Shown here: in pieces, positions 16,129 through 53,329 of the stretch
Layout of the letters: every line of letters starts with the position of its first letter
Position numbering within the stretch: the stretch's first letter is position 1
Source of the DNA: Candidatus Anderseniibacteriota bacterium
GTDB lineage: Bacteria > Patescibacteriota > Andersenbacteria > UBA10190
NCBI GenBank assembly: GCA_040900375.1
Contig: JBBDZC010000021.1
Span: forward strand, 5,258 to 69,257
Direction of reading: 5' to 3'
DNA: 64,000 bases
Notes under the pieces: generated by a model
Databases searched by the model: none
What the model saw: only the letters and a program-made list of their open reading frames with translations
Told to the model about the DNA's origin: nothing
Translations under genes and position numbers: made by a program

Positions 16129-16229
16129 GAGATCGATTAGGTCTTGGCCTATGTTACCACCACCAGCAAATGTTATACTAAATGTACACCACTACTTTGG
16201 TGGCCGTCCTACATTGGCATATACTCTAT

Positions 16230-17255
16230 ATGATCGGTATTGATATTTCTGATCGCTCTGTGAAAGTGGTGCGGCTGTCAAATCGGGCTGATCACAAGCT
16301 GCTGACGCACTGTTGGCAGGAAGTCCCTCTCAATGTCATTGAGAAAGGGGTCATTAAAGACACTAAAGTGATGCAAGAAGTGTTGCGTCATGCTCTGCAG
16401 CGGTGCAATTTGAGTTGGGATAGCAAGGATGCCGTGGTGGCTTCAATTCCAGAGACACAATCATTCTTACGGGTGATTGAAATTCCGCTCATGGACGAAA
16501 GCGAGATTGGTGAGGCAATTCAATGGGAAGTGGCTCAGCATATTCCCTTTGGTTTAGAGAATGTCTACATTGATTGGCAACCAATCCATAGCGGTAAACC
16601 GCCGACGCCGGGCCGCCACGAAGTGCTTGTCGGGGCGGCGGAAAAGAGTGTGGTTGATCCTCTCTTGCACGTGCTCGCGACGATTGGTTTAGACATTGCG
16701 GCCTTTGAATTAGAGAGCCAGGCCATTGTCCGGTCGCTGGTTTCGCGTGAACTTGAACAACATCGCGGTCTCCTGATTGTCGATTTGGGTGGCTCGGCAA
16801 CTAATGTGGTTATTTACGACCGGGGAACGATTCGCTTCACCGCCAGTTTACAGAAAGGGTCCTACAGCCTTCTCCACCCGCTCACGCCCACCGAGGCGCA
16901 AGCGGTCACTGGTCCGCCGAAAGAAATTGTGGAAGCGGACCGAGCCATGCTCGCCTCCAAGTTACAAGCTGTGCATGAAGAGTTGGTAATTGAAATTCAG
17001 GGCATTGTAGAGTTTTACAATGGCATTGACACAAACCACCAGGTTAAGGAAATTATCCTCACCGGCGGGGGCGCCAATTTACCCGGTTTCGATCAGGCAG
17101 TACTCAAGTATTTTGATAATGTGCTGGTCCATCGCGGTAATCCATGGGTTAATATCTTGCCTCCCGGGAAGGACGCTCATCCGCCTTTTGGCTTATTAGA
17201 AGCGGTTCATTTCTCCACAGCGCTGGGGTTAGCACTGCGGGCAGCGGTTAAGTAA
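16230..17255 (+). CDS. pilM: Type IV pilus assembly protein PilM (actin-like ATPase), copy 1
   Basis: MIGIDISDRSVKVV start, ASKHA fold motifs (DLGGSATNV, LTGGGANLPG). Confidence 0.85.
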   Translation: MIGIDISDRSVKVVRLSNRADHKLLTHCWQEVPLNVIEKGVIKDTKVMQEVLRHALQRCNLSWDSKDAVVASIPETQSFLRVIEIPLMDESEIGEAIQWEVAQHIPFGLENVYIDWQPIHSGKPPTPGRHEVLVGAAEKSVVDPLLHVLATIGLDIAAFELESQAIVRSLVSRELEQHRGLLIVDLGGSATNVVIYDRGTIRFTASLQKGSYSLLHPLTPTEAQAVTGPPKEIVEADRAMLASKLQAVHEELVIEIQGIVEFYNGIDTNHQVKEIILTGGGANLPGFDQAVLKYFDNVLVHRGNPWVNILPPGKDAHPPFGLLEAVHFSTALGLALRAAVK

Positions 17256-17263
17256 ATCTGGCT

Positions 17264-17800
17264 ATGAAAGAAGAAATAAATTTACTCCCACCAGCTTTTC
17301 AAAAGTTACGACGCCGGCGGATCTACCTGGTGCGTATCGGTGAGCTTATGCGCCGCATTGATTTCGTGATCATTCTCATTGGGATTGTGTTTGTCGCACT
17401 CTACGGTGCTCTTTTTAGTTTGCAGGCTAATTTGGAGCGCAAGCTCGCGGCCGCGGGTACAACCGAGCAAAGCACAGAAGAAAGAGTTCGTTCAGTTAAT
17501 GAGTTGCTGACAGCAGTCCATAGCCGTACTGTGCCGGTGCTACCATGGATGCCGGGGGTAGGGCAAATCATTCAGTTGTTGCCGCCGAGTATTGTGCTGA
17601 CAGAATTAAGATTGGACGAAGTGAAAAATGTTCTCACGATCCAGGGAATATTCTCGGATCGCCAGGCGATTGTTAAGTTTGAGCAAGAGGTGGCAGCTCT
17701 CCCCTGGGTCGAAAAAGTGGAAGCGCCCCTGCGGAATTTTGCCACGGGTGAGAAAACGGAATTTACCTTTACGGTGACTCGTAAAATAAAAAAGCCATGA
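17264..17800 (+). CDS. pilN: PilN-like protein, copy 1
   Basis: N-terminal INLLP motif followed by single TM. Confidence 0.75.
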   Translation: MKEEINLLPPAFQKLRRRRIYLVRIGELMRRIDFVIILIGIVFVALYGALFSLQANLERKLAAAGTTEQSTEERVRSVNELLTAVHSRTVPVLPWMPGVGQIIQLLPPSIVLTELRLDEVKNVLTIQGIFSDRQAIVKFEQEVAALPWVEKVEAPLRNFATGEKTEFTFTVTRKIKKP

Positions 17801-18438
17801 ACACTCTTCTCCAGGCCCGTGAGCGGCGGTTGTTGTTTAACCGGGGATTGGAACTACTGATTATCGTGGTCTTAATTATTGCTTTGTTTTACTTTCGGGA
17901 ACTCATCCATAGTAAGCGCGTCATGGTCTACCAATTGCAACGTCAGCTTGATGAGGCGCCACAATATGCCGCGCAGCAAGTTAGTTTGCGGACGGAGCTG
18001 GAGAAATCAGCCCATGATATTGTCCGGATTGAGTCCTTGCTCGTCCGACGCGAAGCGCTCGGCGATTTTGTTAGCTTATTAGAAAAGCAGGCACGGCAGA
18101 ACAGGGTGACGCTGCGGGTGCCTGACATTAAAGAAGAAATGGTCCTTAGTGCCGAAGGCAAGCCGGTGGCGGCGACCGGGCCGTATCGCGACATTCGTCT
18201 GCAAGTTACCGCGACCGGTGAGCCCAATGACTTACTCCAACTGCTCCATCAATTAGAACACCTGCCGCATGCTGTTCGTTTGCCGGCCTGGAGTATCACC
18301 ACCACTAACACAGCGGTGTTACTTGATCTTCGTCCCCAGGCACCAGTGATCGGACCTGATGGCAAAGAGGTACCAGTGGTGGCTCCTGGGGGATTACTCG
18401 AAGCCACGATGATCTTAACTATTCGCCAAGATTCATGA
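17797..18438 (+). CDS. pilO: PilO-like protein, copy 1
   Basis: Position after pilN with 4-nt overlap; N-terminal TM and coiled-coil region. Confidence 0.55.
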   Translation: MNTLLQARERRLLFNRGLELLIIVVLIIALFYFRELIHSKRVMVYQLQRQLDEAPQYAAQQVSLRTELEKSAHDIVRIESLLVRREALGDFVSLLEKQARQNRVTLRVPDIKEEMVLSAEGKPVAATGPYRDIRLQVTATGEPNDLLQLLHQLEHLPHAVRLPAWSITTTNTAVLLDLRPQAPVIGPDGKEVPVVAPGGLLEATMILTIRQDS

Positions 18439-18797
18439 AGAAAAAACTGCCGGCAATCCGTATCCGCATGGTGGGCGCGAGCCTGGGACGTGCAGCCCGC
18501 GCTGTACCCCAGTATCTGCTCTTTCAACATCCACTAGCAGTGCAGGTAGTGTTACTGCTCGTGGGTATGGGCTTGGGATTATATGTTGTCTTACGGGTAC
18601 TCTTTACTGATCCCACTGAACTCTCACTTGAGGTGTCGCAAAAGATACCGCAGCTTATGACTGAACAGTTAGATGAACTAGAGTTCTGGATCGAAGAACA
18701 GCACGCGGCATTTTCTACGCCCTTACCGCTGGGGACGCGACAATATTTTCAGGTGATTCGGGAGGGGCAAAGCCAGGTGATCCAGGAACCATTTTAG
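18435..18797 (+). CDS. Small single-TM protein, 4th gene of pilMNO module 1 (PilP-like role possible)
   Basis: 4-nt overlap with pilO; hydrophobic segment VVLLLVGMGLGLYVV. Confidence 0.4.
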   Translation: MKKKLPAIRIRMVGASLGRAARAVPQYLLFQHPLAVQVVLLLVGMGLGLYVVLRVLFTDPTELSLEVSQKIPQLMTEQLDELEFWIEEQHAAFSTPLPLGTRQYFQVIREGQSQVIQEPF

Positions 18798-18849
18798 GGG
18801 CTGGGCGTTGCGCCCGCGGATGTCGGTGGTCTAATCCCGTGGTAGTATA

Positions 18850-19911
18850 GTGAATATGATTGGCATTGACATTTCTGATCGGTCGATAAAGGTTGTCGAA
18901 ATTTCCGGAGGGGAAAACCCTAAACTTCGTACGGTCTGTTGGTCGGCACTTAACCCTAATCTTATTCGGCGCGGTATTGTGCAGGATGTGGCGGCTGTGA
19001 TGCAGGGCTTAGAACAGGCGCTCAACAAATGCTCGCCGGTGCCGGTAGAGGGAAAACGAGTGGTGTTATCTATTCCGGAAACACAATCATTTGTACGTGT
19101 CCTGGATTTACCCGCGATGAGTGAACGAGAAATGAATGAAGCAGTGCAGTGGGCGATTCGCCAGCACATCCCGTTTGACTTAGAGCGTGTCTATCTTGAT
19201 TGGCAACCGCTGGCGACATCACAAACTACCCCCACTCACCGCCAAGTGCTTGTGGGTGCGGCCCAGCGCGATGTCATTGATCCGCTGCTCCAAGTAGTGG
19301 ATGCTCTGGGTCTGGAAGTAGCGGCGCTCGAATTAGAAGCCCAGGCGATTGTCCGTTGCCTCTTGCCGCAAAATGCGGCCGATGTCATGGGGGTTTTGCT
19401 GGTTGATTTAGGGGCAACCTCTACGAATGTTATTTTTGTCGATGAAGGGGCAATGCGCTTTACGACAAGTATTCAGCAGGGCGGTGATGACTTAACGCAG
19501 CAGTTGGCGCAAGAGTTCAAACTGCAGCCCACGATTGCGGCGGAGAAAAAAGCTTTAATTGGAGTCCAAACTAATGGTAATGAGGCGCAGATTGCGGCGA
19601 CGCTACGCTCGGCCACGCTGCGTCTGGTCCAGCAAGTCAGTCAAGTGGTCACGGAATATACGTCCCAGTTACAATCATCACAGGGGCTTCGGGCAATTCT
19701 TTTGGCTGGAGGCGCGGCAAATTTACCAGGCTTGGTCAGTATTTTTGCAGAAGTCTTTCCTGGTATACCCGTCCAGCTTGGCAATCCATGGATTAATCTG
19801 ACGATGGGTAATGGCAAGGAGACAAGTCCGCCTCTCTCGAATGCGGATGCGGCGCACTTTACCACGGCGATTGGCCTCGCTCTCCGGTCGTTAGAGTACG
19901 CGCCGCGGTAG
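18850..19911 (+). CDS. pilM: Type IV pilus assembly protein PilM, copy 2
   Basis: About 50 percent identical to copy 1 (IGIDISDRS, IPETQSF, HIPF, VLVGAA, ALELE-QAIVR blocks conserved). Confidence 0.85.
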   Translation: MNMIGIDISDRSIKVVEISGGENPKLRTVCWSALNPNLIRRGIVQDVAAVMQGLEQALNKCSPVPVEGKRVVLSIPETQSFVRVLDLPAMSEREMNEAVQWAIRQHIPFDLERVYLDWQPLATSQTTPTHRQVLVGAAQRDVIDPLLQVVDALGLEVAALELEAQAIVRCLLPQNAADVMGVLLVDLGATSTNVIFVDEGAMRFTTSIQQGGDDLTQQLAQEFKLQPTIAAEKKALIGVQTNGNEAQIAATLRSATLRLVQQVSQVVTEYTSQLQSSQGLRAILLAGGAANLPGLVSIFAEVFPGIPVQLGNPWINLTMGNGKETSPPLSNADAAHFTTAIGLALRSLEYAPR

Positions 19912-19927
19912 ATCTGGATTTTTTACT

Positions 19928-20509
19928 ATGCGTGAAATTAATCTTTTGCCTCCCTCGCGCCGTCAATCCCTGCGGCGGGAAGTGACGTTGGCTTCCATCG
20001 GACGTTTTTTGAGTAGCTTAATGGTCGGTTTAGGCATGCTGACTGTTGGGGCAGTGTTGGCGATGATCGGTTTGTGGATTTTCTTCTATACTGTGGCCGC
20101 GACCAATAATGTTGAGTTTGAGCGGACCATTGCTCAGTATCGTGAGCTGCGAGATGGAATTGCCGAGCAGAATATTTTTCTTAATTACATTTATGGCTTA
20201 GGCACCGGGCGGCAAGTATGGTCTGATTTTTTGCCAGGGTTGTTTACTAGTATTCCTCCCGGTGTGGAGATTGCCACGATGAGTGGGCGATCGGTTATAA
20301 ATGAGGAAGGGGTAGTGGAGAGTACTTTTACTGTTTCAGGGCGGGCCGCGGCGCGTAGTACACTCACCATTTTTGCTGATCGCCTGCGTCTGTTGCCCGA
20401 CGTGGCTCAGGTTGATGCACCCAGTTCTAATTTGATTCAGCGAGAGAACCCACTGTATCGCTTTACCCTGCAGTTAAAAGACAAGATAATTGAGGAGGAA
20501 GAGCTATGA
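19928..20509 (+). CDS. pilN: PilN-like protein, copy 2
   Basis: MREINLLPP motif plus TM. Confidence 0.75.
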   Translation: MREINLLPPSRRQSLRREVTLASIGRFLSSLMVGLGMLTVGAVLAMIGLWIFFYTVAATNNVEFERTIAQYRELRDGIAEQNIFLNYIYGLGTGRQVWSDFLPGLFTSIPPGVEIATMSGRSVINEEGVVESTFTVSGRAAARSTLTIFADRLRLLPDVAQVDAPSSNLIQRENPLYRFTLQLKDKIIEEEEL

Positions 20510-21111
20510 AAGTCTTGGCCCAAACGAGGACCAGCCAACAGTATCAAAAAATCGTACTTCGCTCGATTATGCTGGTTATTTTAATCGTGGCCCAGCCTTT
20601 TCTATGGAGTATGGTTGCAGGTGTAGCCAATCGGGTCCATGCGCAACAGTCACAGAAACAACAGATTATCGATGTGCAGGCCCGCACTGCCCAAATTAGA
20701 GAAATTAATGTCAGCCAGAAAGAATTTCTTGATCAGCTTGATGTGGTGGTACCGCTGGCGGGCTCACTGTCCCAAATTATTGAGCGGCTGGAGCGCTTAG
20801 CCACCGACCGGCAGCTGCGGTTGTCAATTCTTGATATCAAGGAAGATGTTTTGGAGGAAGCAACGGATTTGGAGAATATTCCGGTGCAGCGTTTTCGGAT
20901 TAGCTTGCAGGTTACGGGCACCCCCGCCCAGTTGTTGACCTATATTGATGCGGTGGAGCATGTACAGGAATTGACTATTTTGGAGGACTGGTCCTTTGTG
21001 GCAGCCACGGCCCCGGTTAGTTTCCCGGCTCCGGATGCGGTCTATCCTTATACCGCGACGATGAGCCTTTTATTCTTTTTACAGTCGGAAATCGATGCCG
21101 TCGAAGAGTAA
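20506..21111 (+). CDS. pilO: PilO-like protein, copy 2
   Basis: Position and topology equivalent to copy 1; 4-nt overlap with pilN2. Confidence 0.5.
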   Translation: MKVLAQTRTSQQYQKIVLRSIMLVILIVAQPFLWSMVAGVANRVHAQQSQKQQIIDVQARTAQIREINVSQKEFLDQLDVVVPLAGSLSQIIERLERLATDRQLRLSILDIKEDVLEEATDLENIPVQRFRISLQVTGTPAQLLTYIDAVEHVQELTILEDWSFVAATAPVSFPAPDAVYPYTATMSLLFFLQSEIDAVEE

Positions 21112-32630: not shown

Positions 32631-32659
32631 ATTGACAAAATGACCATTTGGGAGTATCA
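32631..32659 (+). promoter_or_regulatory. Sigma-70-type promoter TTGACA-N17-TATCAT
   Basis: Consensus -35 and near-consensus -10 with 17-nt spacer, about 90 nt upstream of the 32751 ORF. Confidence 0.5.
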
Positions 32660-32750
32660 TTTAGCGTTCTGGATAGTTCCTTCCACTGGCAGGCCGTAGG
32701 TTTAGCACGTTGCTAGACAGGCGGTAGGCCACATACCCCACAGGTGTCAC
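32660..32750 (+). promoter_or_regulatory. Structured leader element, copy 1
   Basis: CACTGGCAGGCCGTAGG - hairpin GTTTAGCA/TGCTAGAC - AGGCGGTAGGCCAC, then ATG. Confidence 0.5.
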
Positions 32751-33074
32751 ATGTTTAGCAAGGACGATCTAACGAATGCGCCCGAGGACGAGTTGTGCGG
32801 CGCGATCACTATTGTTCTCGAGGACTTCAAGAAAAGCTCTCAATATCATCTGATGATCAATCAGTCGCATGAGAGTGACTGGACCTTGGGTGCCCGCTTT
32901 GAGGAACACCTTGCGGCGCTGCATATCAAGGAAGCTTATCGGGTGCTGTGCGTGCTCGTGGCTGAGTATCGACGGCGCGGCCTGTCCCTACCGGACAACG
33001 TGAATGCCGACTTGAAGCGCAACGTCGCGCTCAAGGAGACCGACATCGATGTCGCCTATCGCTGCCTTGTGTAG
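32751..33074 (+). CDS. Hypothetical protein (107 aa)
   Basis: ORF following leader copy 1; no recognisable domain. Confidence 0.5.
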   Translation: MFSKDDLTNAPEDELCGAITIVLEDFKKSSQYHLMINQSHESDWTLGARFEEHLAALHIKEAYRVLCVLVAEYRRRGLSLPDNVNADLKRNVALKETDIDVAYRCLV

Positions 33075-33100
33075 ATTGCTGCTGGTGTGCTGTATGCACA

Positions 33101-33239
33101 GGGTGAGTACCATGAAATCTCACCACTTTCTTTTCTCTGATCTCGGAAGAGGTCGTAGGTGAGAAGGTTCTTTTCACCGGCAGGCCGTAGACTGCGTGCG
33201 TTACGCAGTAAGCGGTAAGCCAACACGGGAGGTACTGCA
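33101..33239 (+). promoter_or_regulatory. Structured leader element, copy 2
   Basis: GTGAG-TACCATGAAAT-CTCAC hairpin, then GGTTCTTTTCACCGGCAGGCCGTAG - hairpin ACTGCGT/ACGCAGT - AAGCGGTAAGCCAAC, GGGAGG, ATG. Confidence 0.5.
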
Positions 33240-33509
33240 ATGTACATTCACTACATCCAGTTCAATGGCAGCTCCACCTATCGCCTCTATATCGGCCCGT
33301 TCGATACCGAGGTGCAGGCCGAGGTCTTCAAGCAGCGCATGGTGCGTACCCGCGAGAGCTCACCGCATCTCACGATGCAAGGGGTCGCTCTTGAGATCGC
33401 GCCGGGCATTGACGGTCGTTGGGGTGTCGTTACTCCCGATCAGTTCAAGGGCTTCTGCGTGTTCGATATGAACACCGAGCGGGAGGTCAATGTCCCGCTG
33501 GCCGACTAA
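33240..33509 (+). CDS. Hypothetical protein (89 aa; weak SPOR-like pattern YRLYIGPFDTEVQAEVF)
   Basis: ORF following leader copy 2. Confidence 0.5.
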   Translation: MYIHYIQFNGSSTYRLYIGPFDTEVQAEVFKQRMVRTRESSPHLTMQGVALEIAPGIDGRWGVVTPDQFKGFCVFDMNTEREVNVPLAD

Positions 33510-33533
33510 CTGATCAAACGGTGTGCATAGCAC

Positions 33534-33677
33534 GAGGCGAGTACCGTAAAATCTCGCCACCTTTCCTAATGCAAGCTCACAAGAGATTGTATCAGGAAAG
33601 GTTCTTTTCACTGGCAAGCCGTAAGTCCGACGCGGTGTCGGATAGGCGGTAGGTCACTACTCGAAAGAGGTGCTGCA
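33534..33677 (+). promoter_or_regulatory. Structured leader element, copy 3
   Basis: GCGAG-TACCGTAAAAT-CTCGC hairpin, CCTTTCCT...AGGAAAGG hairpin, GGTTCTTTTCACTGGCAAGCCGTAAG - hairpin TCCGAC/GTCGGA - TAGGCGGTAGGTCAC, AGAGGTG, ATG. Confidence 0.5.
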
Positions 33678-34127
33678 ATGGCACGTCCACGCAGTGAGTT
33701 TCTAGGTTCGCTCGGCAAGCTGTTCTCCATCTTCAAGAAGGTGGCGGACGCGGTGCTGGAACTGGGTGGTAGTGATGACGACATTATCCGTATCAACACG
33801 GATGAAGTTCTCGCTACCAACATCGCCTATCTACTTCTCGCATCGAGAACGCGAGGTGACCTCCGCGGTGGTTTCGGCGGCACGCTAGTTGCCGTACGCA
33901 ATCCACTCACAGGTGACCTCATCCGTGTCGGCGAGCCCTTCTATGTGAAGCCGGTGGGGTCTCCTCTCGGCAAACGCGCGTGGGGCGTGGTGACCAAGAT
34001 ACGTCCACCGTCATCAGACCCTCTCGATAGATCTCTAAGCATCAGCTACCCCTTCATCGGTCACGGAGGAGAAGCTGAGCTCTCTGACCTCGGCACGTTC
34101 GGCTTCAACGAGATTGAGAAGCAATAA
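33678..34127 (+). CDS. Hypothetical protein (149 aa)
   Basis: ORF following leader copy 3. Confidence 0.5.
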   Translation: MARPRSEFLGSLGKLFSIFKKVADAVLELGGSDDDIIRINTDEVLATNIAYLLLASRTRGDLRGGFGGTLVAVRNPLTGDLIRVGEPFYVKPVGSPLGKRAWGVVTKIRPPSSDPLDRSLSISYPFIGHGGEAELSDLGTFGFNEIEKQ

Positions 34128-34136
34128 CAGACACTC

Positions 34137-34172
34137 ACCGGCGATCTGGCAACAGGTCGCCGTTTTCTTTCG
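34137..34172 (+). terminator. Rho-independent terminator
   Basis: CGGCGATC-tggcaaca-GGTCGCCG stem (one G-U) followed by TTTTCTTTC. Confidence 0.5.
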
Positions 34173-34402
34173 CGCGGCCGCCCCGTTACTACTTACTAAC
34201 TATTACTATCTTATTCTCTGTATGTGTTCTTACTGGCTGAGAGAACCCACCTTTTCGCCGACCCCTATTTTACCCCTTCCTAACCCCGCCGCAGCGTATT
34301 CCTGCATATTTTGGCTCTCTGACGCGTGATATTCGAGTTGCGGCGCCCAGTCCAATACGGTATCAAGAAAGCGGTTCCAGTTTTCTGACAAGATGTCCAC
34401 TA

Positions 34403-34423
34403 TTTGTGATAAGTTATCACAAA
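34403..34423. promoter_or_regulatory. Perfect 21-bp palindrome TTTGTGATAA-G-TTATCACAAA (candidate operator)
   Basis: Read directly; 34 nt upstream of the 34457 ATG. Confidence 0.5.
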
Positions 34424-34456
34424 TCAAAAACTGTTCACCAGTTTGGAGAACAAGCA

Positions 34457-34657
34457 ATGGCTATTTCAACAGAAAGACGCAACGAGATTGCATGGCAGTA
34501 CTTGGTCTTCCAGATTCGAGAAGCTGGGCTACATCACACGAACTTCGACTCTCCCGACACAAGACAAAAAATCCGTGTGACCGCAGGGAAAATTGGAGTT
34601 TCTTTTGAAGAAGCGATGGAGTTTGTCAAAGCAGTCCTTGCCGAAACCAAAGATTAG
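34457..34657 (+). CDS. Small hypothetical protein (66 aa)
   Basis: ATG with GGAGAA 6 nt upstream; ORF track's longer 34406 start would read through the palindrome. Confidence 0.45.
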   Translation: MAISTERRNEIAWQYLVFQIREAGLHHTNFDSPDTRQKIRVTAGKIGVSFEEAMEFVKAVLAETKD

Positions 34658-34671
34658 TTATCGCATGTGTC

Positions 34672-34720
34672 AGAACCCCTTCACCATAACTGGTGAGTGC
34701 ATTAAGGGTTCTTTTTCTTT
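34672..34720 (+). terminator. Rho-independent terminator
   Basis: AGAACCC ... GGGTTCT stem followed by TTTTTCTTT. Confidence 0.55.
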
Positions 34721-34847
34721 GGTCAGTATGGTATAGAAATCCTGGACTTCGGCATAGAGAGGTTCCAAGAATTTTCCTTCATGTCCACTATTATCTAAAA
34801 TACTTCTTCTCGTTGACCGGCTAGTGATCCCGGTATAGAAAGAAGGC

Positions 34848-38051: not shown

Positions 38052-38220
38052 ACTCATCTCCTTCATGCAGCGGCTCATACCAAACCTATTCTTGGTGCTC
38101 TCCACCATGGAGAGCGGTGAAAAGTGCAGATCAGCCACCCGTTACTACTGTGCGGTACTCTATTCAATAATGTTTTTAAAAATTAGTCAAGCGCGGTGTT
38201 CTATAATACTATCAGAGGTA

Positions 38221-39198
38221 ATGAGCTCCACGAGTAACCAAGCGGCTCGGAATATTCCTCTGGCGGTGCGCTCACCAGCGGCCCCGATCTTGGAGCCGCG
38301 AACTGGTGAGCAGTATTGGTGGGAGCGTCACGGCACGTTTAATCCGGGTGTAGCGGAGTATCAGAAAAATATTATTCTTCTATACCGGGCCTATGATGAT
38401 TTTCGTATCTCGCGCCTGGGCTTGGCCAATAGTCAGGATGGGGTACATTTTACTCGCTATGATCACCCGGCAATTGATACCAACCCGGATGATCCTCATG
38501 AGCGCCTTGGGATCGAAGACTCCCGGATTACACAACTGGGATCAACTTACTATATTGTCCACACGTCAGCATCCTACCATCGCATTGGCGATAAGAAGGA
38601 TGTCAGAGGTGTGAGAGATTATATTCCCTGGCGGGTACGGATTGGGATGCACAGTACGGAAGACTTTCATTCATTCCAGCATTGGGGAGTAATCTTGCCG
38701 GACGTGCCGGCGAAAAATGCCTGTCTCTTGCCGGAAAAAATTCAGGGCTCTTTTGGGCTCTATTACCGCGAACACGAAGATACACGGGATATCTTAAAGT
38801 TAACCTATACCAAGGACTTCAAACACTGGTCACCGGCGAGCGTGGTGGAGTGGCCGGCAGCAGCCGAGTGGCAGCGCTTTAAATTTGGCATAGGTTCACA
38901 ACCACTTGCCACGCCCCACGGCTTTTTAACGGTGTACCATGCGGTTGATGAGTCACAGGTGTATCGACTAGGCCTTCTTCTCTTAAGCCGAGAAGACCCA
39001 GCGCATATTCTCTGGCATAGTAATCCGATTCTTGAACCAGAGATGCCTTATGAGCGAGAAGGATACGTACCGAATGTGGTGTATACCTGCGGCGCGCTTA
39101 TTCGGGGGCAGGAGCTATGGGTATACTATGGGGCGGCTGACCGAGTAATTGGACGAGCGGTGGTGCCGCTGCACGATATTTGGAGAAATAATTCTTAA
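38221..39198 (+). CDS. GH130-family glycoside phosphorylase/glycosidase-like protein
   Basis: NPGVAEY..LLYRAYDD..LGLANSQDGVHF..EDSRITQLGSTYYIVHTS beta-propeller GH130 blocks; TATAAT -10 at about 38202. Confidence 0.7.
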   Translation: MSSTSNQAARNIPLAVRSPAAPILEPRTGEQYWWERHGTFNPGVAEYQKNIILLYRAYDDFRISRLGLANSQDGVHFTRYDHPAIDTNPDDPHERLGIEDSRITQLGSTYYIVHTSASYHRIGDKKDVRGVRDYIPWRVRIGMHSTEDFHSFQHWGVILPDVPAKNACLLPEKIQGSFGLYYREHEDTRDILKLTYTKDFKHWSPASVVEWPAAAEWQRFKFGIGSQPLATPHGFLTVYHAVDESQVYRLGLLLLSREDPAHILWHSNPILEPEMPYEREGYVPNVVYTCGALIRGQELWVYYGAADRVIGRAVVPLHDIWRNNS

Positions 39199-39210: not shown

Positions 39211-40239
39211 ATGAGAACTAGAGAGAAGCTGCGGGTAGCGATGCTGGCACCAATTGCCTGGCGCACGCCACCTAACCATTATGGTCCGTGGGAGCAAGTC
39301 ACCTCGCTTATTACCGAGGGCTTGGTTAAAGAAGGAGTAGATGTGACACTCTTTGCCACCAAAGATTCAGTGACGACGGCGCAACTGCGGGCTGTCTGCC
39401 CCACGGGCTACGAGAATAATAAAAAATTAGATCAGCCGGTGTGGCTGGCATTACATGTCTCTGAAGTTTTTGAGCACGCTGATGAATTTGATATTATTCA
39501 TAGTCATCTCGATGTTCTGCCGCTCTCTTACTCGCGGTTAGTGGATACACCACTGGTGACCACTATTCATGGATTTCCCTCGCTGCAAAGCCCGATAGTG
39601 TACCGCAAATACAATGGTCAGGCTTTCTATGTCGCCATTAGTGATGCTAACCGTCACCCTGATTTAACGTATGTTGCCACTGTGCACCACGGTATCAATC
39701 TTAATGATTTTTCTTTCCGCGCTGATCCCGATGACTACCTGATCTTTTTTGGCCGGATTCATCACGACAAGGGGACGGCTGAGGCAATTGAAATTGCCCG
39801 GCAGGCGGGTTGCCGGCTGATAATAGCGGGACTGATTCAGGATACAGCGTACTATCAAGAGCAAGTTGAACAGCGTCTCGATGGTAAAAATGTGGTGTAC
39901 GAAGGGAACGTGGGACCAGAAAAGCGCAATGAACTGCTCAGTGGAGCGAGAGCACTATTGCACCCTATTAATTTTGATGAGCCGTTTGGGCTCTCGGTCA
40001 TTGAAGCGATGGCTTGTGGCACGCCGGTGATCGCATTTAACCGCGGCAGCATGCCGGAACTCATTGAGGAGGGCGTAACTGGCTATCTCGTACCAAATGT
40101 TGACGAGGCGGTGCGGGCGGTGGAGAAGCTGCCAGAGCTTAACCGGGAAGAGTGCCGCCGGCGAGCGGAACGGCGCTTTGGTGTGGAGCGGATGGTGGCA
40201 GACTACCTGAAGGTGTATGCACAGATTCTAGGGCGTTAA
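39211..40239 (+). CDS. Glycosyltransferase family 4
   Basis: EPFGLSVIEAMACGTPVIA (EX7E region). Confidence 0.8.
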   Translation: MRTREKLRVAMLAPIAWRTPPNHYGPWEQVTSLITEGLVKEGVDVTLFATKDSVTTAQLRAVCPTGYENNKKLDQPVWLALHVSEVFEHADEFDIIHSHLDVLPLSYSRLVDTPLVTTIHGFPSLQSPIVYRKYNGQAFYVAISDANRHPDLTYVATVHHGINLNDFSFRADPDDYLIFFGRIHHDKGTAEAIEIARQAGCRLIIAGLIQDTAYYQEQVEQRLDGKNVVYEGNVGPEKRNELLSGARALLHPINFDEPFGLSVIEAMACGTPVIAFNRGSMPELIEEGVTGYLVPNVDEAVRAVEKLPELNREECRRRAERRFGVERMVADYLKVYAQILGR

Positions 40240-41437
40240 CTGATTGGGTAGCGTGATTATTATTGAGGACAGTGCGGAAGAGATTGAGGTGACTCTGGGC
40301 CACGTTTGGCCAGGTCATCAGGCGGCCATACTGGTAAGCTTTTTTCTCAATCCGCTGCCTTTTATCGGGATGTTGCCAGAGGTCAATCACGGCGGCGGCA
40401 ATGGCGTGGGGGTCTTTAAAGGGAACAATGATACCGCGCTCGTCCGCTAAAACTTCACGGGCATAAATATAGGGAGTGGAAATACACGCCTTACCGGCCC
40501 CAATGGCATAGGCTAAAGCCCCTGAAGTAACCTGCTCGGGATCGAGGTAGGGCGTGATATAGATATCTAGTGTTTTGAGCCAGTCAATTAATTCCTTGAG
40601 CGGTAAGTAGGAATTAACAAAGCGGACATTATTTTTTATGCCGAGCTCGCGCGCTCGTTTCTTAAGGTAATTGCGGTACTGCTCGCCTTCGGAGCGCAAA
40701 AGGTTAGGGTGAGTTTGGCCAATGACCGTGTAGAGTACCCGAGGATTTTTTTGGGCAATGAGCGCGACTGCTTCCAGGGCATATTCAATGCCTTTGTTTG
40801 GTGAGAGTAAATTAATATTACCGAGCACGAGACGATCAGTCAGTTGCCGTTTTTTCTTATGGCCCTCGACGGAGTTAAAGGGAAGATCAGGAACGCCGTG
40901 GGGTATCACCACAATTTTTTCTCGAGGAATGCCGTAATTTTGCACCAGTTTTTGGGCAACGTTTTCCATCATAACAACGATAGCTTGAGACTTTGCAGCA
41001 ATGCGCTTTAAAATCTCGCCGTATTTAGTTTGGCTGTTTTCCACGATTGTATGAAAGGTGGTAATCAGCGGGCGTTCAAGGGCTTCAACAAAATGCACGA
41101 TATATTCCCCGCCTTCGCCTCCAAATAGACCAAATTCATGTTGGAGCGATACTAAATCTGCCCGCGATTGATTGACATATTCGGCAGCCGCGAGGTAGCT
41201 CCCCAGTTCGTTGTCAGTCATTTTAAATTTCGCTTCCCAGGGGTACTCAATGGTGTCATCCGGATCATTGATGACTAGAATTTCCGCTAGAGAGTAAGAG
41301 TTGAGCAAGTTAATCGCGTTAGTGAGGTCTTTAGTGTACGTGGCAATACCGCATTTACGAGGGATGTAGGAGGAGATATAAATAACATTAAGGGGTTGTT
41401 GTTGCAGGTTGAGAGCTTGTTCAAAATTCTTTGTCAT
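40139..41437 (-). CDS. Glycosyltransferase family 4 (large, sucrose-synthase-like GT-B)
   Basis: GT4 C-terminal domain; 3' end overlaps the convergent GT4 gene by about 100 nt. Confidence 0.75.
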   Translation of the reverse strand: MTKNFEQALNLQQQPLNVIYISSYIPRKCGIATYTKDLTNAINLLNSYSLAEILVINDPDDTIEYPWEAKFKMTDNELGSYLAAAEYVNQSRADLVSLQHEFGLFGGEGGEYIVHFVEALERPLITTFHTIVENSQTKYGEILKRIAAKSQAIVVMMENVAQKLVQNYGIPREKIVVIPHGVPDLPFNSVEGHKKKRQLTDRLVLGNINLLSPNKGIEYALEAVALIAQKNPRVLYTVIGQTHPNLLRSEGEQYRNYLKKRARELGIKNNVRFVNSYLPLKELIDWLKTLDIYITPYLDPEQVTSGALAYAIGAGKACISTPYIYAREVLADERGIIVPFKDPHAIAAAVIDLWQHPDKRQRIEKKAYQYGRLMTWPNVAQSHLNLFRTVLNNNHATQSVNALESVHTPSGSLPPSAPHQSAVPLAGGTLPG

Positions 41438-41441
41438 AGTC

Positions 41442-42536
41442 TTAGTATACTTTAAGAATTGTGAGCATTGTCTGGGCAATGACTGGTGGGGCATACATTG
41501 CTGTCACGTGATCGCGGGCCGCGTGCCCCATCTTTTCCCGCCGGGCCGGATTAGTCAGGAGCAACTTGAGGTAACCGGCCAGATCGTTGATGTCAGCCCG
41601 GAGCGTATTGGTGGCCGGCGCCGGGCGGGCGAGGAAACCGGTTTTCTCATGGAGCACCGTTTCAGTTAGCGCATTAGCAGCAATTGCAATCACGGGCTTG
41701 CCGCACATTTGCGCTTCAATAAACGGTAAACCGAATCCTTCGCGCCGCGAGGGAGCCACATAGAGGTCACAGGTATTCATCAAGCCCCGCATGAAGACTT
41801 GCGAAAATTCTCCCACGATATAACGGATGCGATGATCGATACCTAATTTTTTCGCCAATGTTAGTTCGGCCTGTGAATAAGAAAAACTTGTAGCTGACGG
41901 CCATGTTTTGATCATGTAGACCCATGGGATGTCGCTAGCGGTCTGGCCAAGGGCCGTGATGACTTCTTGAGCTCCCTTGCTTGTGGCATCACCACCGGTG
42001 GTGAATAGGATGGGAATACCAGCTTGTTTAAGTTTTACGAGATCATATTGGAGTGGTAGGTCAACCGTTGCATGCGCCGGAGAAATAAGTTGTAAAAATG
42101 ATTCGAGTTCGGCGGCCGCTAACGGGTGCCAAAATTCGGGGTCAACTGCTTCGGGAACGACAGTGAGCAGCTCTTCCTTAATGCCTTGCGCGACGAAAGT
42201 TTTCTTACAATGCTCGCTGGGGGTGAGAATCACGGGTAGTTTGTTATACTTGGCGACGTGTTCGCCACCCGCGCCATCAGCGACAAGCCAGGGAATAGTG
42301 GGTAGTTTTAATTCGTGAGGGGCGGCTACCAGGAGAGAGTAATCGTGCCAGTCACCCACACTGATGACAAAGTCAGGATTCAACTCTCCCAACACCTCGC
42401 GATAATTTTTAGCCTCGCCCATTTTGACAATCTGGTTGGGAACAGCCAGTTGCGTAAAACCCTTGGCCAGTGCGTCGGCTTGATTTAAGAAACTATAACC
42501 GTGCTCGGCGGGAGCAACAATGATGGCAATTTTCAT
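41442..42536 (-). CDS. Glycosyltransferase family 4
   Basis: MKIAIIV..., EGFGLPFIEAQMCGKPVIA. Confidence 0.8.
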   Translation of the reverse strand: MKIAIIVAPAEHGYSFLNQADALAKGFTQLAVPNQIVKMGEAKNYREVLGELNPDFVISVGDWHDYSLLVAAPHELKLPTIPWLVADGAGGEHVAKYNKLPVILTPSEHCKKTFVAQGIKEELLTVVPEAVDPEFWHPLAAAELESFLQLISPAHATVDLPLQYDLVKLKQAGIPILFTTGGDATSKGAQEVITALGQTASDIPWVYMIKTWPSATSFSYSQAELTLAKKLGIDHRIRYIVGEFSQVFMRGLMNTCDLYVAPSRREGFGLPFIEAQMCGKPVIAIAANALTETVLHEKTGFLARPAPATNTLRADINDLAGYLKLLLTNPARREKMGHAARDHVTAMYAPPVIAQTMLTILKVY

Positions 42537-42724
42537 ACGTGTCCTCAAGTGTCGAAACTAAAAAACACCTTTCCCCTACAATAACGAGGCAAGGGTGTCA
42601 GCAGTTAAAGTGTGTATCGACGAATTGTGGTACAGTTACTTCCCACGATTCGATGCCAGCTAAAGCCAAATCACTGCTGGGCTAAGCCTTGACAGGTGAG
42701 TAGGATGATACTATAAAATAGCCG

Positions 42725-43861
42725 ATGACGCAAGTTTTTCCTGCTATGTCTCCCGCTGCTTCTTTACATGCCTATCCTTTATTGAACCATTTTAAAACCA
42801 TGATGGGTCCCTATGGCTTGTACCAGCATGCTACCAGTCGTGTGCCGCTCTTGAGGGAAGGATATTGCACGGATGACAATGCCCGGGCGGTGCAAGTCTT
42901 AGTTCACCTGCGCTCGTTGATGGCGATAGAGGAGCGAGGACTTGTGGATCAATTTCTGGAGCGCTGCTGGCAGTTTCTTCGTGAAGCGCGAACGGGTGCG
43001 GGCGAGTACCTTAATTTTCGCTCGGCGCAGGGTGGGTGGCTACCAACGGGTGTTTCTGATGATATGTATGCCCGGCTCATCCGTACCTTTGTCACTGTTT
43101 TGATGCACGATGGAACAGCTGCTCGCCGCCAACAAGCGCAGGAAATGTTGACAGAACTACTGGTTGCACTGCCGCGACTGCAAGCACCACGAGCGTGGGC
43201 AGAAATACTATTGAGCTTAGCCAGTCTACCGATAGAACTTCAACAATCTCTCGCAGCGAAGTCGATCATCAGCCATGGTTTGGAATTTTTGCATCGTTTG
43301 TGGCAGCACCAAGCTTCAGCGGCCTGGCCATGGTTTGAGCTAAAAATGACCTATGCTAATGCGCTGTTGCCTCATGGATTGCTCGCTGGCTTGCGAGTCG
43401 CGCCGCAAACAACATATGAAGAAATTTTGCACCAAAGTGCTCAATTTCTGATTAAGACCACTATTCCCCAGGAAATTTTTATTCCGATCGGCAGCGTTGG
43501 CTGGTATGAAAAAGGAGGAGAGCCTTCCCAAGATAATCAACAACCAATCGAGGCGGGCACTATGTTTGATTTCTTGATTGACTACTATCGCTCCTTTCCC
43601 CAGCGGGTGACAGTGGCGCAGGTTACTGCTCCTTACCTGTGGTTCTATGGTTACAATACTCACCGCCTCGCCCTGGTTGATCCTATGACAGGGGCCAGTT
43701 TTGATGGTCTTTTTCGCCATGGTCCTAATAAAAATTGCGGGGCGGAATCTTTACTGGCTTATTTGTGGGCGGAGATTTTACTCCAGCAAGCACCACCCGC
43801 TATGCGTGAGGTAGCCACACTTAAGAGAAGTGAATTTGTTTCTTCTTCAGACTTGACTTAA
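42725..43861 (+). CDS. Hypothetical protein, possibly alpha/alpha-toroid glycoside-hydrolase-like
   Basis: Long ORF; REGYCTDDNARAV region; no firm family assignment. Confidence 0.4.
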   Translation: MTQVFPAMSPAASLHAYPLLNHFKTMMGPYGLYQHATSRVPLLREGYCTDDNARAVQVLVHLRSLMAIEERGLVDQFLERCWQFLREARTGAGEYLNFRSAQGGWLPTGVSDDMYARLIRTFVTVLMHDGTAARRQQAQEMLTELLVALPRLQAPRAWAEILLSLASLPIELQQSLAAKSIISHGLEFLHRLWQHQASAAWPWFELKMTYANALLPHGLLAGLRVAPQTTYEEILHQSAQFLIKTTIPQEIFIPIGSVGWYEKGGEPSQDNQQPIEAGTMFDFLIDYYRSFPQRVTVAQVTAPYLWFYGYNTHRLALVDPMTGASFDGLFRHGPNKNCGAESLLAYLWAEILLQQAPPAMREVATLKRSEFVSSSDLT

Positions 43862-43877: not shown

Positions 43878-44615
43878 CTACTGGGTTGGCACGGGTTCGC
43901 TGTAGATACGGACGTTATCAATCCAGCCATCAAACGCGTTGGAGTTGCTGTTATAGCCGCGCCCTACGTCCCAATTGGCGGCGACAAAATTAGGCGAGGT
44001 GACTGTCTGCTGCGCTACTATTTTAGCGTCAACATACAAGCGCGCCGTTGTGCCATCGTGAGTGGCAACAATGTGTTGCCAGCGATTAAGGAGAACGCTG
44101 TTATTAGGTGACCCAATCGATACGGAAGATGACAGGAAGACCCTATAGGCAGTGCCCTGGCGGGCTAGGCGAGGGAATGTTCCACTGCCGCCAGCATTTT
44201 GCTTGCCTAAGAAGATATCTAAGCCGGCCAAGGTATGGGGATACACCCAAGCTTCGAGGGTGTAGGTGTTACCGATTGCCGGCACGCCGGTAAAACGCAC
44301 GCTATCGTTTGAACCATCGAAGTTAAGTCCCTTGGTGTTGTTAATGCCATCAACTACTGTAGCGCCGCTGATAGTGCCGGTTTGACTAGCGCGGCAGGTA
44401 TCGGGAGTGGTGCCAGAAGTAACCGTATTAAAATCCCAGACGCCAATACAGTTGTTGACAAGGGTGCGATAGATTTGGCCGCTGTAAGCATAGAGACTGG
44501 CGAGACGCGCACGCTCCCGCGAACCGTAGACCGCCACAATAACGACGGTGACGAGGATACCCATTAAACCGACAACAATCAGGATCTCAATCAGGGTGAA
44601 ACCAGTTTTTTTCAT
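43878..44615 (-). CDS. Type IV prepilin fused to a concanavalin A-like lectin/LamG domain
   Basis: MKKTG|FTLIEILIVVGLMGIL class III signal; C-terminal LNFDGSNDSVRF...YTLEAWVYP...WQHIVATHDG...FDGWIDNVRIYS LamG/ConA-like blocks. Confidence 0.75.
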   Translation of the reverse strand: MKKTGFTLIEILIVVGLMGILVTVVIVAVYGSRERARLASLYAYSGQIYRTLVNNCIGVWDFNTVTSGTTPDTCRASQTGTISGATVVDGINNTKGLNFDGSNDSVRFTGVPAIGNTYTLEAWVYPHTLAGLDIFLGKQNAGGSGTFPRLARQGTAYRVFLSSSVSIGSPNNSVLLNRWQHIVATHDGTTARLYVDAKIVAQQTVTSPNFVAANWDVGRGYNSNSNAFDGWIDNVRIYSEPVPTQ

Positions 44616-50508: not shown

Positions 50509-51297
50509 GTGATGCGGTATACTACACTCATGATGCGGCGGGAAAAGATTCATGCCCTGATCCTGGCACGGAAAAATAGCGGCGAGGCTGACCGCTTTTT
50601 GACGCTATTCACGCGTGATTATGGGTTGCTGCGGGTGGTGGCTAAAGGTGTGCGTAAAATTCCCTCACGGCGGGGTGGCCACCTTGAGCCGCTGACGCAC
50701 GCCCTCGTCATTATTTCAGGAGGACCGGGTCATTACTTTTTAGCGGCGGTGGAGACCCAGCACGAACATCTAACTTTACGCCGTGATACTGTGGCCCGGG
50801 CTCATGCCCAGACTTTAGCTCATCTGCCTATTTACCTCTTTGAAGAAGCGGAAGTGAATGCGACATTATTTGATGCTGTTCACCATGCGTGGCAGATTTT
50901 GCCTGACTTAGAGATTGCCAAACAGCAAACACTGGTGACTGCTGTGACGCTCCATGCCTTGCGGTGTGCCGGGCTCATGCCGGACCTGGCCGCCTGCCAA
51001 GCATGTGGAGTGCAGCAACCAACTGATGCAGTAATTATGGATGCCCGGGGCGGCGGGTGGCGCTGTCTGCCGTGTCTCACCAGCTTGTCGGGGACACGGC
51101 TGTCGCTTTCTCCACGACTACTCAAGGCGGTCCGTTTTATTGCGCGCTATCCCGAGCGAGCGCTGCAGGTCCGCCTGGCGGCTGAAGAAAGCCAGCAAAT
51201 TGGGGCGACCATTCAGGAATATGTTGAGCATACTATTGGCAAATCTCTACTCTCCCCGCCCGCGCCGCTCTTGACGCCACTGCTATATGCCCAGTGA
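50509..51297 (+). CDS. recO: DNA repair protein RecO
   Basis: OB-fold N-terminus and C-terminal CxxC...CxxC zinc motif. Confidence 0.8.
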   Translation: MMRYTTLMMRREKIHALILARKNSGEADRFLTLFTRDYGLLRVVAKGVRKIPSRRGGHLEPLTHALVIISGGPGHYFLAAVETQHEHLTLRRDTVARAHAQTLAHLPIYLFEEAEVNATLFDAVHHAWQILPDLEIAKQQTLVTAVTLHALRCAGLMPDLAACQACGVQQPTDAVIMDARGGGWRCLPCLTSLSGTRLSLSPRLLKAVRFIARYPERALQVRLAAEESQQIGATIQEYVEHTIGKSLLSPPAPLLTPLLYAQ

Positions 51298-53329
51298 GAA
51301 GAAGGGGCTACCAGTACCCGCCGATTCTCAACCGGGCGAGGGCAAGCCTCCGTTACCGGGTAATTTAACCACGCCTCCTGGTCAGTCCGAAGAAGCAGTG
51401 TTGAGCCAGCTCAAGCGGGAGTTATACGCCCGAGATGAATCAAAGACGATTACTAATCGGGGTGAGGAATTGCACCACCTCGGCATTCGCCGACAAGTGT
51501 TGCCACCAGCGATAGTGAGCAAGGAAGAGCCAACAGTTGCTTTTGAAAGTTTGATAACTAAGCGAGCCAAACGCCGCCGCCGCGTATTGCTGGGCGCGGG
51601 CGGCATTAGCTTGCTCATTTTTTTGTTTGGCAGCGCGGTGGCGGGAACGTTGTGGTACCGCCTGCGCCAGACGGTGAAGCAAGAACAAATTAGAGTAGAG
51701 CTGACCGCGCCGACCGAGTTTACGACTGGCGAAACGATTACCTACCGGGCACAGTTGCGCAATGATAGTTATGTTGATTGGGAAAATGTGGAGCTAGTTT
51801 TTGAACCGCCCCGAGGCTTTCGCTACCGCGAGAGTTCGCACGAGCTACAGCGCAATAATAAGCAATATACGGCAACCTTGAACACGCTGGCGAGCGGGCA
51901 AGAGGCGACGGTCGAGATCAATGGTCAGTTGCTGGGGGAGCATAATGCTTCACTGGTAGCCCGGGCGGAAGTAGTCTTTACGCCAAAGAATTTTCCGAGC
52001 GGGCGATTTACGAAATCAACCTTGGCGACGACGGTGATTACTTTGGTGCCCATTGATGTAGCGATTGATGCGACTGATGAAGCCCAGAGTGGCGAACGTC
52101 TACTGGTCACCGTGCAGGTACGTAACAATAGTCCCAATACTTTAGAAGGAGCATACCTTAGGATCAACCCTGCCCCAGGGATGGAAGTTGCCCCGGAAGA
52201 TGCGCAATTCTCCCCAGGGTTTTCGGTGGTTGATTCGCGGTGGGAACTGGGAGTGCTCGAGCCGCTCGCGAATGTTCAGCGCCAACTTGTAGTTTATGTC
52301 GAGGGCGAGCCGAGCGAGCGGCGGACACTCGATGTCGAGTTGGGCATTCAAGACGGTGAGGAGGAGTTTATTCAACGCTCGGTAGCCCACTTAATCACTA
52401 TCACCGCTTCTGCTTTGGCGGTTGAGCAAGTCTACAATGATCAGAGTAACTCGCTGATCGTTACTCCTGAAGAGCGAATTAGCGGCGTGATCCGTTACAC
52501 GAATATTGGCACCGGAGGACTTAAAAATGTGGTCATTAAGGTAGCTTTTGAAGGAACGGGCATTGATCCGGCTTCGCTGCGGCTACCGGCTGGAGCCTAT
52601 GACCCAACTACGCGCACAATTACCTGGACGGCTGCTTCTGTGTCGGCGCTGGCGACAGTGCAGCCGCGCCAGGAAGGGTCAGTGTCGTACGAGTTTCAGA
52701 TTCTCCCCGCGGCTGGTTTTCCGACGTCCGGAGATGACGCGAAAAATAATGTGCTGACAGCAATCGCCACAATTGATAGTCCGGATTTAATTACCCCGAC
52801 TGGGCAGCAGCGTAACTTAGTCTCTGATCGGTCAGTTTTATCAATTGCCACGACACTCTCATTGGAGACGGATGCTTTCTATGATGATGGTCGCCTCGGC
52901 ATTGAAAGTAGTGGACCCTTGCCGCCACGAGCCGGGGAACAAACAACGTATACACTCCGTTTTCGTTTAGGCTCGACACTCAATGATATGGGTGACGTAA
53001 AGCTTGTTGCTGTTCTGCCAGATGGAGTGCGGTATATGGATAAAATATATAAGACGGCCGGCGAAGTCACGTTTAACGAGCGCACCGGCGAGATCATTTG
53101 GACGCTGCCGACTTTAGCTGGTCTGACCGCGCGCGCGCTACCAGGGGAGGAACTTCAAGCCCAAATTGCCATTACCCCGGCTGAACACCAACGCGGCCAA
53201 AGCATTACTTTCCTTAACCGTTTGACGGCTGAAGGCACTGATCTCTTTACGGAAAATTCAATTCAGACCCAGATAACAAGCTTCCCCACAACCGAGACCG
53301 CTGTGAGGAATAAAGGCACGGTCGAGTAG
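51287..53329 (+). CDS. Large membrane-anchored surface protein with repeated beta-sandwich (DUF11/CARDB-like) domains
   Basis: Cytoplasmic N-terminus, basic stop-transfer RRRR + TM, then about 550 aa repetitive extracellular region; 11-nt overlap with recO. Confidence 0.5.
   Translation: MPSEKKGLPVPADSQPGEGKPPLPGNLTTPPGQSEEAVLSQLKRELYARDESKTITNRGEELHHLGIRRQVLPPAIVSKEEPTVAFESLITKRAKRRRRVLLGAGGISLLIFLFGSAVAGTLWYRLRQTVKQEQIRVELTAPTEFTTGETITYRAQLRNDSYVDWENVELVFEPPRGFRYRESSHELQRNNKQYTATLNTLASGQEATVEINGQLLGEHNASLVARAEVVFTPKNFPSGRFTKSTLATTVITLVPIDVAIDATDEAQSGERLLVTVQVRNNSPNTLEGAYLRINPAPGMEVAPEDAQFSPGFSVVDSRWELGVLEPLANVQRQLVVYVEGEPSERRTLDVELGIQDGEEEFIQRSVAHLITITASALAVEQVYNDQSNSLIVTPEERISGVIRYTNIGTGGLKNVVIKVAFEGTGIDPASLRLPAGAYDPTTRTITWTAASVSALATVQPRQEGSVSYEFQILPAAGFPTSGDDAKNNVLTAIATIDSPDLITPTGQQRNLVSDRSVLSIATTLSLETDAFYDDGRLGIESSGPLPPRAGEQTTYTLRFRLGSTLNDMGDVKLVAVLPDGVRYMDKIYKTAGEVTFNERTGEIIWTLPTLAGLTARALPGEELQAQIAITPAEHQRGQSITFLNRLTAEGTDLFTENSIQTQITSFPTTETAVRNKGTVE

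Follow-up and report, generated by a model that had tools for sequence, protein, structure and literature searches.

A probable type IV pilin with a LamG jelly-roll head encoded in an Andersenbacteria genome

What is the role of a small protein that joins a prepilin-like N-terminus to a lectin-like domain, and is that role connected to the glycan genes beside it? The question is raised by a 245-aa protein encoded in a 64,000-nt stretch of contig JBBDZC010000021.1 from Candidatus Anderseniibacteriota bacterium (the whole stretch is referred to as the window). Andersenbacteria fall within the Parcubacteria group of the Patescibacteria, or candidate phyla radiation (CPR). A preliminary description of this DNA, made from the sequence alone, had suggested a carbohydrate-binding adhesin at the pilus tip, encoded next to a block of glycan genes. 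In a list of open reading frames (ORFs) and their translations, the gene occupies 43878..44615 (-) as one ORF, which begins at the first start codon past the upstream stop and ends with the stop codon at 43878-43880. Its product is 100% identical to the GenBank protein P0001, which comes from a metagenome-assembled genome (MAG) and is annotated as a LamG-like jellyroll fold domain-containing protein of Candidatus Andersenbacteria bacterium. The motifs quoted earlier (MKKTGFTLIEILIVVGLMGIL, LNFDGSNDSVRF, YTLEAWVYP, WQHIVATHDG, and FDGWIDNVRIYS) are all present in the translation. The evidence presented below makes it very likely that the protein is a type IV pilin with a LamG head; it is referred to here as the LamG pilin.

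The N-terminus carries a genuine class III signal rather than an ordinary Sec signal, in agreement with the preliminary description. The five-residue basic leader MKKTG (44601..44615, -) ends in Gly-1, and cleavage by a prepilin peptidase is predicted between Gly5 and Phe6. The sequence that follows, FTLIEILIVVGLMGILVTVVIVAV, supplies Phe+1 and Glu+5 (MKKTG/FTLIE) and then approximately 20 hydrophobic residues. Both relevant profiles exceed their cut-offs, namely, the N_methyl family PF07963 (23.1 bits versus a cut-off of 21.2) and TIGR02532 (22.0 bits versus 16.3). Residues F6, T7, L8, I9, and E10 are invariant across 22 homologs, and Gly-1, Phe+1, and Glu+5 are invariant throughout the family. 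Precursor residues 6-55 (44451..44600, -) correspond to the alpha-1 helix, the filament-core and membrane-anchor segment, as delimited by a structure model and by comparison of the family profile to solved pilins. The models for GspG, GspH, ComGC, ComGD, and ComGE also match the N-terminus weakly, far below their cut-offs and solely over the shared alpha-1N. Assignment to the TafC fimbrial family (NF052521) was rejected: the score of 35.7 bits falls short of the cut-off (410), and only the LamG part was matched. TafC proteins, moreover, belong to haloarchaeal Tat-dependent fimbriae, whereas the protein studied here has a class III signal (MKKTG/F) and lacks a twin-arginine motif.

The remaining 190 residues (residues 56-245; 43881..44450, -) form a LamG/ConA-like beta-sandwich according to both sequence and model, as the preliminary description had supposed for a region of about 200 aa. 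The Laminin_G_3 family (PF13385) covers residues 100-241 (E = 4.4e-21; 76 bits versus a cut-off of 27.6). An AlphaFold2 model built on 22 homologs (predicted local distance difference test [pLDDT] of 85.1, pTM of 0.79) contains helices at residues 8-27 and 32-55, followed by sixteen strands within residues 56-238. When the model was compared to the PDB with Foldseek, ConA-like jelly rolls were retrieved at E values of about 1e-10 to 1e-9; these included HcN of the botulinum and tetanus toxins and of NTNH, domain 4 of the Geobacillus arabinanase AbnA, and the lectin-like domain of trypanosomal trans-sialidases together with its preceding helix. The family profile, in turn, matched the LamG domain of an S-layer-domain protein (4qvs; E = 1.8e-23) and AbnA domain 4 (5hon; E = 1.4e-19), with weaker matches to pappalysin, pentraxin, neurexin, and laminin LG domains.

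The same profile indicates how the two parts are joined. Its N-terminal part aligns with alpha-1 of the solved geopilin, PilE, PilA, and GspG structures, and the alignment of free-standing LamG domains begins at profile position 59, at a motif reading "avgiWdfd" in which W60 occupies the corresponding place. This start leaves no room in the sequence for a pilin sheet of the usual four strands. The canonical alpha-beta-roll head, with its four-stranded antiparallel sheet on alpha-1C, was not found, and the LamG sandwich takes up everything past residue 55; there is neither a separate pilin beta-sheet module nor a linker between alpha-1 and the LamG head, and no C-terminal tail helix follows it. 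As judged from the alignments and the model, the jelly roll stands in place of the pilin head and is not an addition to it.

Two features set apart the small subclade of 10 sequences (35-46% identity) in which the LamG pilin falls. All 10 members of this closest subclade keep Cys56 and Cys74 (codons at 44448-44450 and 44394-44396, together spanning 44394..44450, -), a pair that the wider family lacks. The modeled positions of the two residues are on either side of the first hairpin (strands 56-61 and 69-72), which makes a Cys56-Cys74 disulfide across it probable. The contig also has a gene for a DsbA-like thioredoxin (25934-26674, +); taken together, this gene and the cysteine pair suggest extracytoplasmic disulfide formation in this CPR lineage. 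The second feature is found at the C-terminus, which reads RIYSEPVPTQ and lacks the usual LamG "aLs..ei" segment. The conserved C-terminal tail is missing in 10/10 subclade members and is present in the wider pilin family, in 4qvs, and in 5hon.

The fusion is not unusual: no modular-pilin architecture on record is more frequent (PMC8179133, Dataset S1). Raynaud et al. (2021, PNAS; PMC8179133) defined "modular pilins," surveyed InterPro for them, and predicted carbohydrate binding. The combination IPR012902-PF13385 heads their Dataset S1 with 229 proteins, and the first species named in the legend of their Fig. 8 is a CPR bacterium, Candidatus Magasanikbacteria. The LamG pilin resembles these proteins in having a class III motif (IPR012902) followed by one Laminin_G_3 domain. 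However, that class is defined by domain co-occurrence alone, none of its PF13385 members has been characterized, and its model consists of a complete small pilin module, a linker, and an extra module, whereas the LamG domain described here starts right after alpha-1.

Lectin-like pilins of two other organisms offer further comparisons. Streptococcus sanguinis PilC (PDB 7OA7/7OA8; Shahin et al. 2023, PMC9934059) binds sialylated glycans and was modeled in a tip complex. Like the LamG pilin, it is a prepilin that has Glu5, and its unusually short pilin moiety is joined to a module of the ConA-like lectin/glucanase superfamily. It differs in its size (52.8 kDa when processed), its additional Ig-like module, its galectin-like character, its position in the pil locus, and its need for a PilA partner, and the sequence and fold matches listed for the LamG pilin did not include it; the likeness is one of design and not of demonstrable orthology. 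In Nanosynbacter lyticus TM7x, the minor pilins PilX1 (with a jelly roll resembling L-type lectins) and PilX2 (with a beta-propeller) were proposed as lectins for host cell-wall glycans; rhamnose blocks host binding, and direct glycan binding by PilX1/PilX2 has been proposed only (PMC11623550). These too are CPR type IV pilins with a lectin-like extra domain, but there the domain lies C-terminal to a globular pilin domain and the genes lie in pil loci; PilX2 has a noncanonical signal peptide, and the PilX1 jelly roll was missed by NCBI CD-Search. ConA-like lectins, pili, and glycosyltransferases are also routinely listed as CPR attachment factors. Since lectin-pilin precedents have been published, the idea put forward in the preliminary description was sound but anticipated. 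The closest solved homologs of the head itself are AbnA domain 4 (5HON) and the 4QVS LamG domain, which share with it a core of FDG..DYV, W-H-V, YvDG, and G-iDevRIY. Unlike the LamG pilin, both are free-standing or enzyme-attached domains without a pilin helix, and both keep the "aLs..ei" segment.

To determine how widespread the architecture is, as the preliminary description had recommended, the LamG-pilin profile was used to score 8,000 candidates, with clustering at 90% identity and a threshold of E ≤ 1e-5. At least 2,950 protein clusters share the prepilin and LamG architecture. The best 120 of these are all 245-330 aa long, and almost all match both PF07963 and PF13385. Nearly all named sources among these 120 are CPR (Paceibacterota, Parcubacteria, Yonathbacteria, Spechtbacterales, Andersenbacteria, and the Patescibacteria group), the sole exception being a Candidatus Pacearchaeota archaeon. 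The LamG domain type alone is far more widely used: 26,037 representatives were found at E ≤ 1e-3 among 50%-identity cluster representatives, and nearly all of the best 150 carry tandem copies in proteins of approximately 750-7,500 aa. A scan of GTDB genomes with the subclade alignment listed mostly pilins that match at the N-terminus only; among the matches listed, full-length prepilin-LamG genes also occurred in Saccharibacteria, Paceibacterota, a Pirellulales MAG, and a Gammaproteobacteria MAG. The LamG pilin is thus a further member of a published and very common architecture, within the lineage richest in it, and opens no new question on its own. It is modestly distinctive in its head-replacement topology, its invariant cysteine pair, and its missing tail. 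Within the window it has no paralog, as the family hidden Markov model matched that gene only.

Elsewhere, the genes can be highly multiplied. A Parcubacteria scaffold (ena:ERZ23498683, ZHAN22-2_SAMN18200505_METAG-scaffold_2) carries 15 intact, co-oriented prepilin-Laminin_G_3 genes encoding 261-281 aa (locus L010, 6407-19794; also L011, 81-11639), flanked by genes for a PrsW protease and an IS200-like Y1_Tnp. The paralogs are 42-67% identical overall, and the similarity is unevenly distributed along the genes. Nucleotide identity is 84% in the alpha-1 region (65-67% at third positions), 40% in the central LamG region (37% at third positions), and 85% in the C-terminal tail (72% at third positions), and the spacer lengths recur in classes (84, 146, and 31 nt). 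Such a pattern, in which a saturated middle is enclosed by conserved ends, suggests that the ends have been homogenized while the binding face diversifies, or that this face is exchanged in a cassette-like way; it concerns the family and not the gene in the window. At the protein level, alpha-1 is nearly invariant and the LamG middle is 26-50% conserved, as would be expected if a constant part served for assembly and a variable face for binding. No description of such a LamG-pilin array, with conserved ends and a variable middle, was found in the literature searched.

These observations can be combined in a tentative scheme. The precursor would enter the membrane via its hydrophobic N-terminus, a prepilin peptidase would remove MKKTG after Gly5, and a PilB/PilC/PilMNO machine would lift the pilin into a pilus, where alpha-1 would lie in the filament core and Glu5 would pair with a neighboring subunit. 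The conserved LamG core would hold the fold, and the central strands and loops, which are hypervariable in the family, would form the exposed ligand-binding surface. A pilus-displayed adhesin of low abundance could in this way attach a host-dependent, ultrasmall cell to a partner cell or to a surface polymer, with a cell-wall glycan as the leading candidate ligand. We infer the cleavage, the incorporation into a filament, the position within it, and the ligand; lectin activity and a tip location are plausible. As a whole, the interpretation as a low-abundance pilus adhesin, probably directed at a glycan, is one that we favor by a modest degree.

The presumed extruding machine is encoded in a pil locus at approximately 5.3-21.1 kb, roughly 23 kb from the LamG pilin gene (individual machine genes are 23-39 kb away), which bears out the statement that the fusion is encoded away from the main pil locus. 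The locus begins with genes for a PilB-type assembly ATPase (5275-7065, +; T2SSE, E = 9e-130) and a PilC-type platform protein (7229-8515, +; T2SSF, E = 1e-56). These are followed by a PilV-like modular pilin with two CarboxypepD_reg (PF13620) domains and a SpaA-like match (8548-9894, +), an architecture (IPR012902-PF13620) that ranks third in frequency among modular pilins in Dataset S1 of Raynaud et al. 2021 (PMC8179133). Further minor pilins are PpdC-like (9891-10538 and 11854-13209, +) or PilX_N/GspK-like (11268-11834, +), and a pilin-like gene at 14743-16128 (+), without a family match in either library, has an N-terminus that is PilX-like by eye only. A gene for a 213-aa leucine-rich-repeat protein runs in the opposite direction amid the minor-pilin genes (10552-11193, -). 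A membrane glycosyltransferase of the PMT family (protein O-mannosyltransferase-like) lies inside the pilus locus (13193-14632, +); its gene shares 17 nt with the 3′ end of the pilin gene that precedes it (11854-13209), and the enzyme is a candidate for pilin O-glycosylation. The presumed alignment subcomplex spans 16182..21111 (+) and consists of two PilM genes (PilM_2, E = 3e-32 and 2e-44), each followed by two small genes (16182-18438 and 18850-21111). Of the small genes past the first PilM, one is PilN-like, with an INLLP N-terminal motif, and the other has a T2SSM_b match; those past the second lack family matches, although one shares the INLLP motif. The consecutive PilM sets may represent a duplicated alignment subcomplex, hinting at two pilus systems in one locus. 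A relaxed motif scan of the window found four Glu5-bearing prepilins, three of which lie in the pil locus and have leaders of 11-17 aa versus 5 aa in the LamG pilin. Neither a prepilin peptidase (peptidase A24/PilD) nor PilT was found among the scanned ORFs of the window, which also contains no small classical major pilin.

The glycan genes lie on the other side of the question, next to the LamG pilin gene, and all of them are located where the preliminary description had placed them. They comprise a GH130 gene (38065-39198), three GT4-type (Glycos_transf_1/Glyco_transf_4) genes (39211-40239, 40139-41494, and 41442-42548), and a gene for a 378-aa protein without a Pfam or NCBIfam match (42725-43861, +). 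The last of these is convergent with the pilin gene, and the pilin and the block are therefore not cotranscribed; a scan for promoters and terminators around the pilin gene gave no signal above the shuffled expectation. The 378-aa protein was modeled as an (alpha/alpha)6 barrel (pLDDT of 93). Its nearest structures are Yersinia YPO2471 and AGE-family epimerases (cellobiose, glucose, and GlcNAc 2-epimerases), with GH9 and GH76 ranking lower, and the named ones among its 760 homologs are largely from Andersenbacteria. The pairing of an epimerase-like barrel with a phosphorylase of family GH130 is reminiscent of the known cellobiose-2-epimerase/GH130 mannan pathway, and the combination makes the block look like one for sugar metabolism.

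The claim that pilus display is functionally coupled to this block did not hold up in the comparison of loci. The GH130-GT4-(alpha/alpha)6 block is kept as a unit in two related genomes (L015 and L016) with no LamG pilin nearby. Wider-family LamG pilins, for their part, are mostly single genes among housekeeping genes, such as those for enolase and PPDK, TGT and ClpB, or FtsZ and thioredoxin; one further locus contains tRNA synthetases, GlmS, and POR, with a second pilin copy 6 kb away. Conserved coupling was thus rejected, as each partner occurs without the other in most or in related loci. There is a slim chance that the pilin is nevertheless glycosylated by the products of these genes or recognizes their glycan. 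In this direction point two subclade loci in which a LamG pilin adjoins (L013) or lies approximately 1 kb from (L001/L002) a GT4-GT4-GT2 block, one GT4 of which is 42% identical to the product of 39211-40239, as well as the Ser/Thr-rich residues 63-88 of the pilin itself. On the other hand, the subclade member at L012 and all wider-family loci have no glycosyltransferase neighbors, such genes are abundant across CPR genomes, and nothing in the tests run ties the block to the cell surface. Incidental placement is the best reading of the adjacency, and a link at the level of the subclade retains a small probability.

Several observations weigh against the interpretation as a glycan-directed minor pilin, in a family that has no experimentally studied member. 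AbnA domain 4, to which the family is homologous, binds arabinan with a dissociation constant of about 8-11 μM through a Trp-rich concave cleft (PMC9110388), and the passage of PMC10066038 that cites its ref. 41 refers to a laminin_G_3 module acting as a carbohydrate-binding module. However, 0/7 of the noncore Trp residues of AbnA domain 4 are conserved in the LamG pilin, and the two core Trp residues alone align. Transfer of the AbnA binding site was therefore rejected because the Trp-rich cleft is not kept; the protein may bind in a different mode. LamG folds bind proteins and steroids as well, and to our knowledge neither HcN of the botulinum neurotoxin nor the lectin-like domain of trans-sialidase has an established sugar ligand. 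A tip location is made less certain by the PilV/PpdC/GspK-like minor-pilin set that the pil locus holds of its own and by the Glu5 that the LamG pilin keeps. The gap left by PilD in the window also counts on this side. In addition, the gene lies outside the minor-pilin operon, and its product has the shortest leader and the most canonical N-terminus of the four Glu5 prepilins; given these traits and the lack of a classical major pilin in the window, it may instead form the shaft.

In that role, the protein would be a major or alternative major pilin, its LamG domain forming a bulky, antigenically variable coat or a multivalent binding surface along the filament. We regard this as unlikely. Major pilins are often encoded apart from the minor-pilin operon, as this gene is; the leader and alpha-1N, with Glu5 kept, look canonical; and the LamG domain stands directly after alpha-1 in place of the normal head. 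The many paralogs of other genomes, with near-identical alpha-1 and variable heads and with up to 15 genes in tandem, likewise resemble major-pilin variation. A classical major pilin may, however, lie outside the 64 kb seen, and hardly any known major pilin has a head as large as approximately 190 aa. In the only CPR pili that have been studied, the major pilins are small and the filaments measure 1.8-3.2 nm in width (PMC11623550). Head size and the TM7x precedent are the points in favor of a minor role.

The two other alternatives fare worse. It is improbable that the protein is a pseudopilin in a short filament, of a competence or type II secretion-like kind, that serves DNA uptake or the crossing of the cell wall; its LamG domain would then bind the cell's own wall polymer or cargo. 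The weak Gsp and ComG scores at the N-terminus are compatible with such a protein, and DNA uptake has been suggested for CPR type IV pili (PMC5220378), but those scores reflect the shared alpha-1N, the machinery on the contig is of the PilB/PilC/PilMNO kind with PilV/W/X-like minor pilins, and nothing ties LamG domains to DNA. It is very improbable that the protein is unrelated to pili and that its hydrophobic N-terminus merely anchors a LamG surface protein. The missing PilD would fit with a plain anchor, as would the prevalence of the same LamG domain type in giant nonpilin surface proteins; the invariant residues around the cleavage site argue against it, as does the equally conserved, long amphipathic alpha-1C to residue 55, which would be unexpected in an anchor.

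Returning to the pilus adhesin that we favor, its wider interest lies with the family. The presumed lifestyle of CPR/Patescibacteria is one of attachment to other microbes, and host recognition is largely obscure beyond one Saccharibacteria model. With at least 2,950 clusters and up to 15 copies in a row, LamG pilins are a very abundant candidate for this function. A more far-reaching and rather doubtful proposal is that LamG-headed pilins constitute a distinct, largely CPR class of polymerizing or interchangeable subunits, with arrays as a recombination-driven repertoire and the gene described here as a single-copy, disulfide-stabilized Andersenbacteria version. If so, cells would coat or tip their pili with alternative binding faces and could switch host or ligand specificity in the manner of pilin antigenic variation. 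As the LamG pilin is small, has a single domain, and is modeled at a pLDDT of 85, it may be practical for expression and for glycan- or host-binding screens.

Two further features of the window were noted. A transfer-messenger RNA (tmRNA) gene is present at 31431-31837 (Rfam, 87.8 bits), with a 149-aa ORF (30790-31239) at the place expected for SmpB, as judged by eye only. Approximately 3 kb past the tmRNA gene contain only small ORFs of ≤149 aa (region 30790-34800), and an island might be inserted at the tmRNA gene. Lastly, a 680-aa protein with a DUF11 repeat is encoded at 51287-53329 (+); it has, by eye, a hydrophobic stretch past a charged, proline-rich N-terminal region and may be another cell-surface protein.

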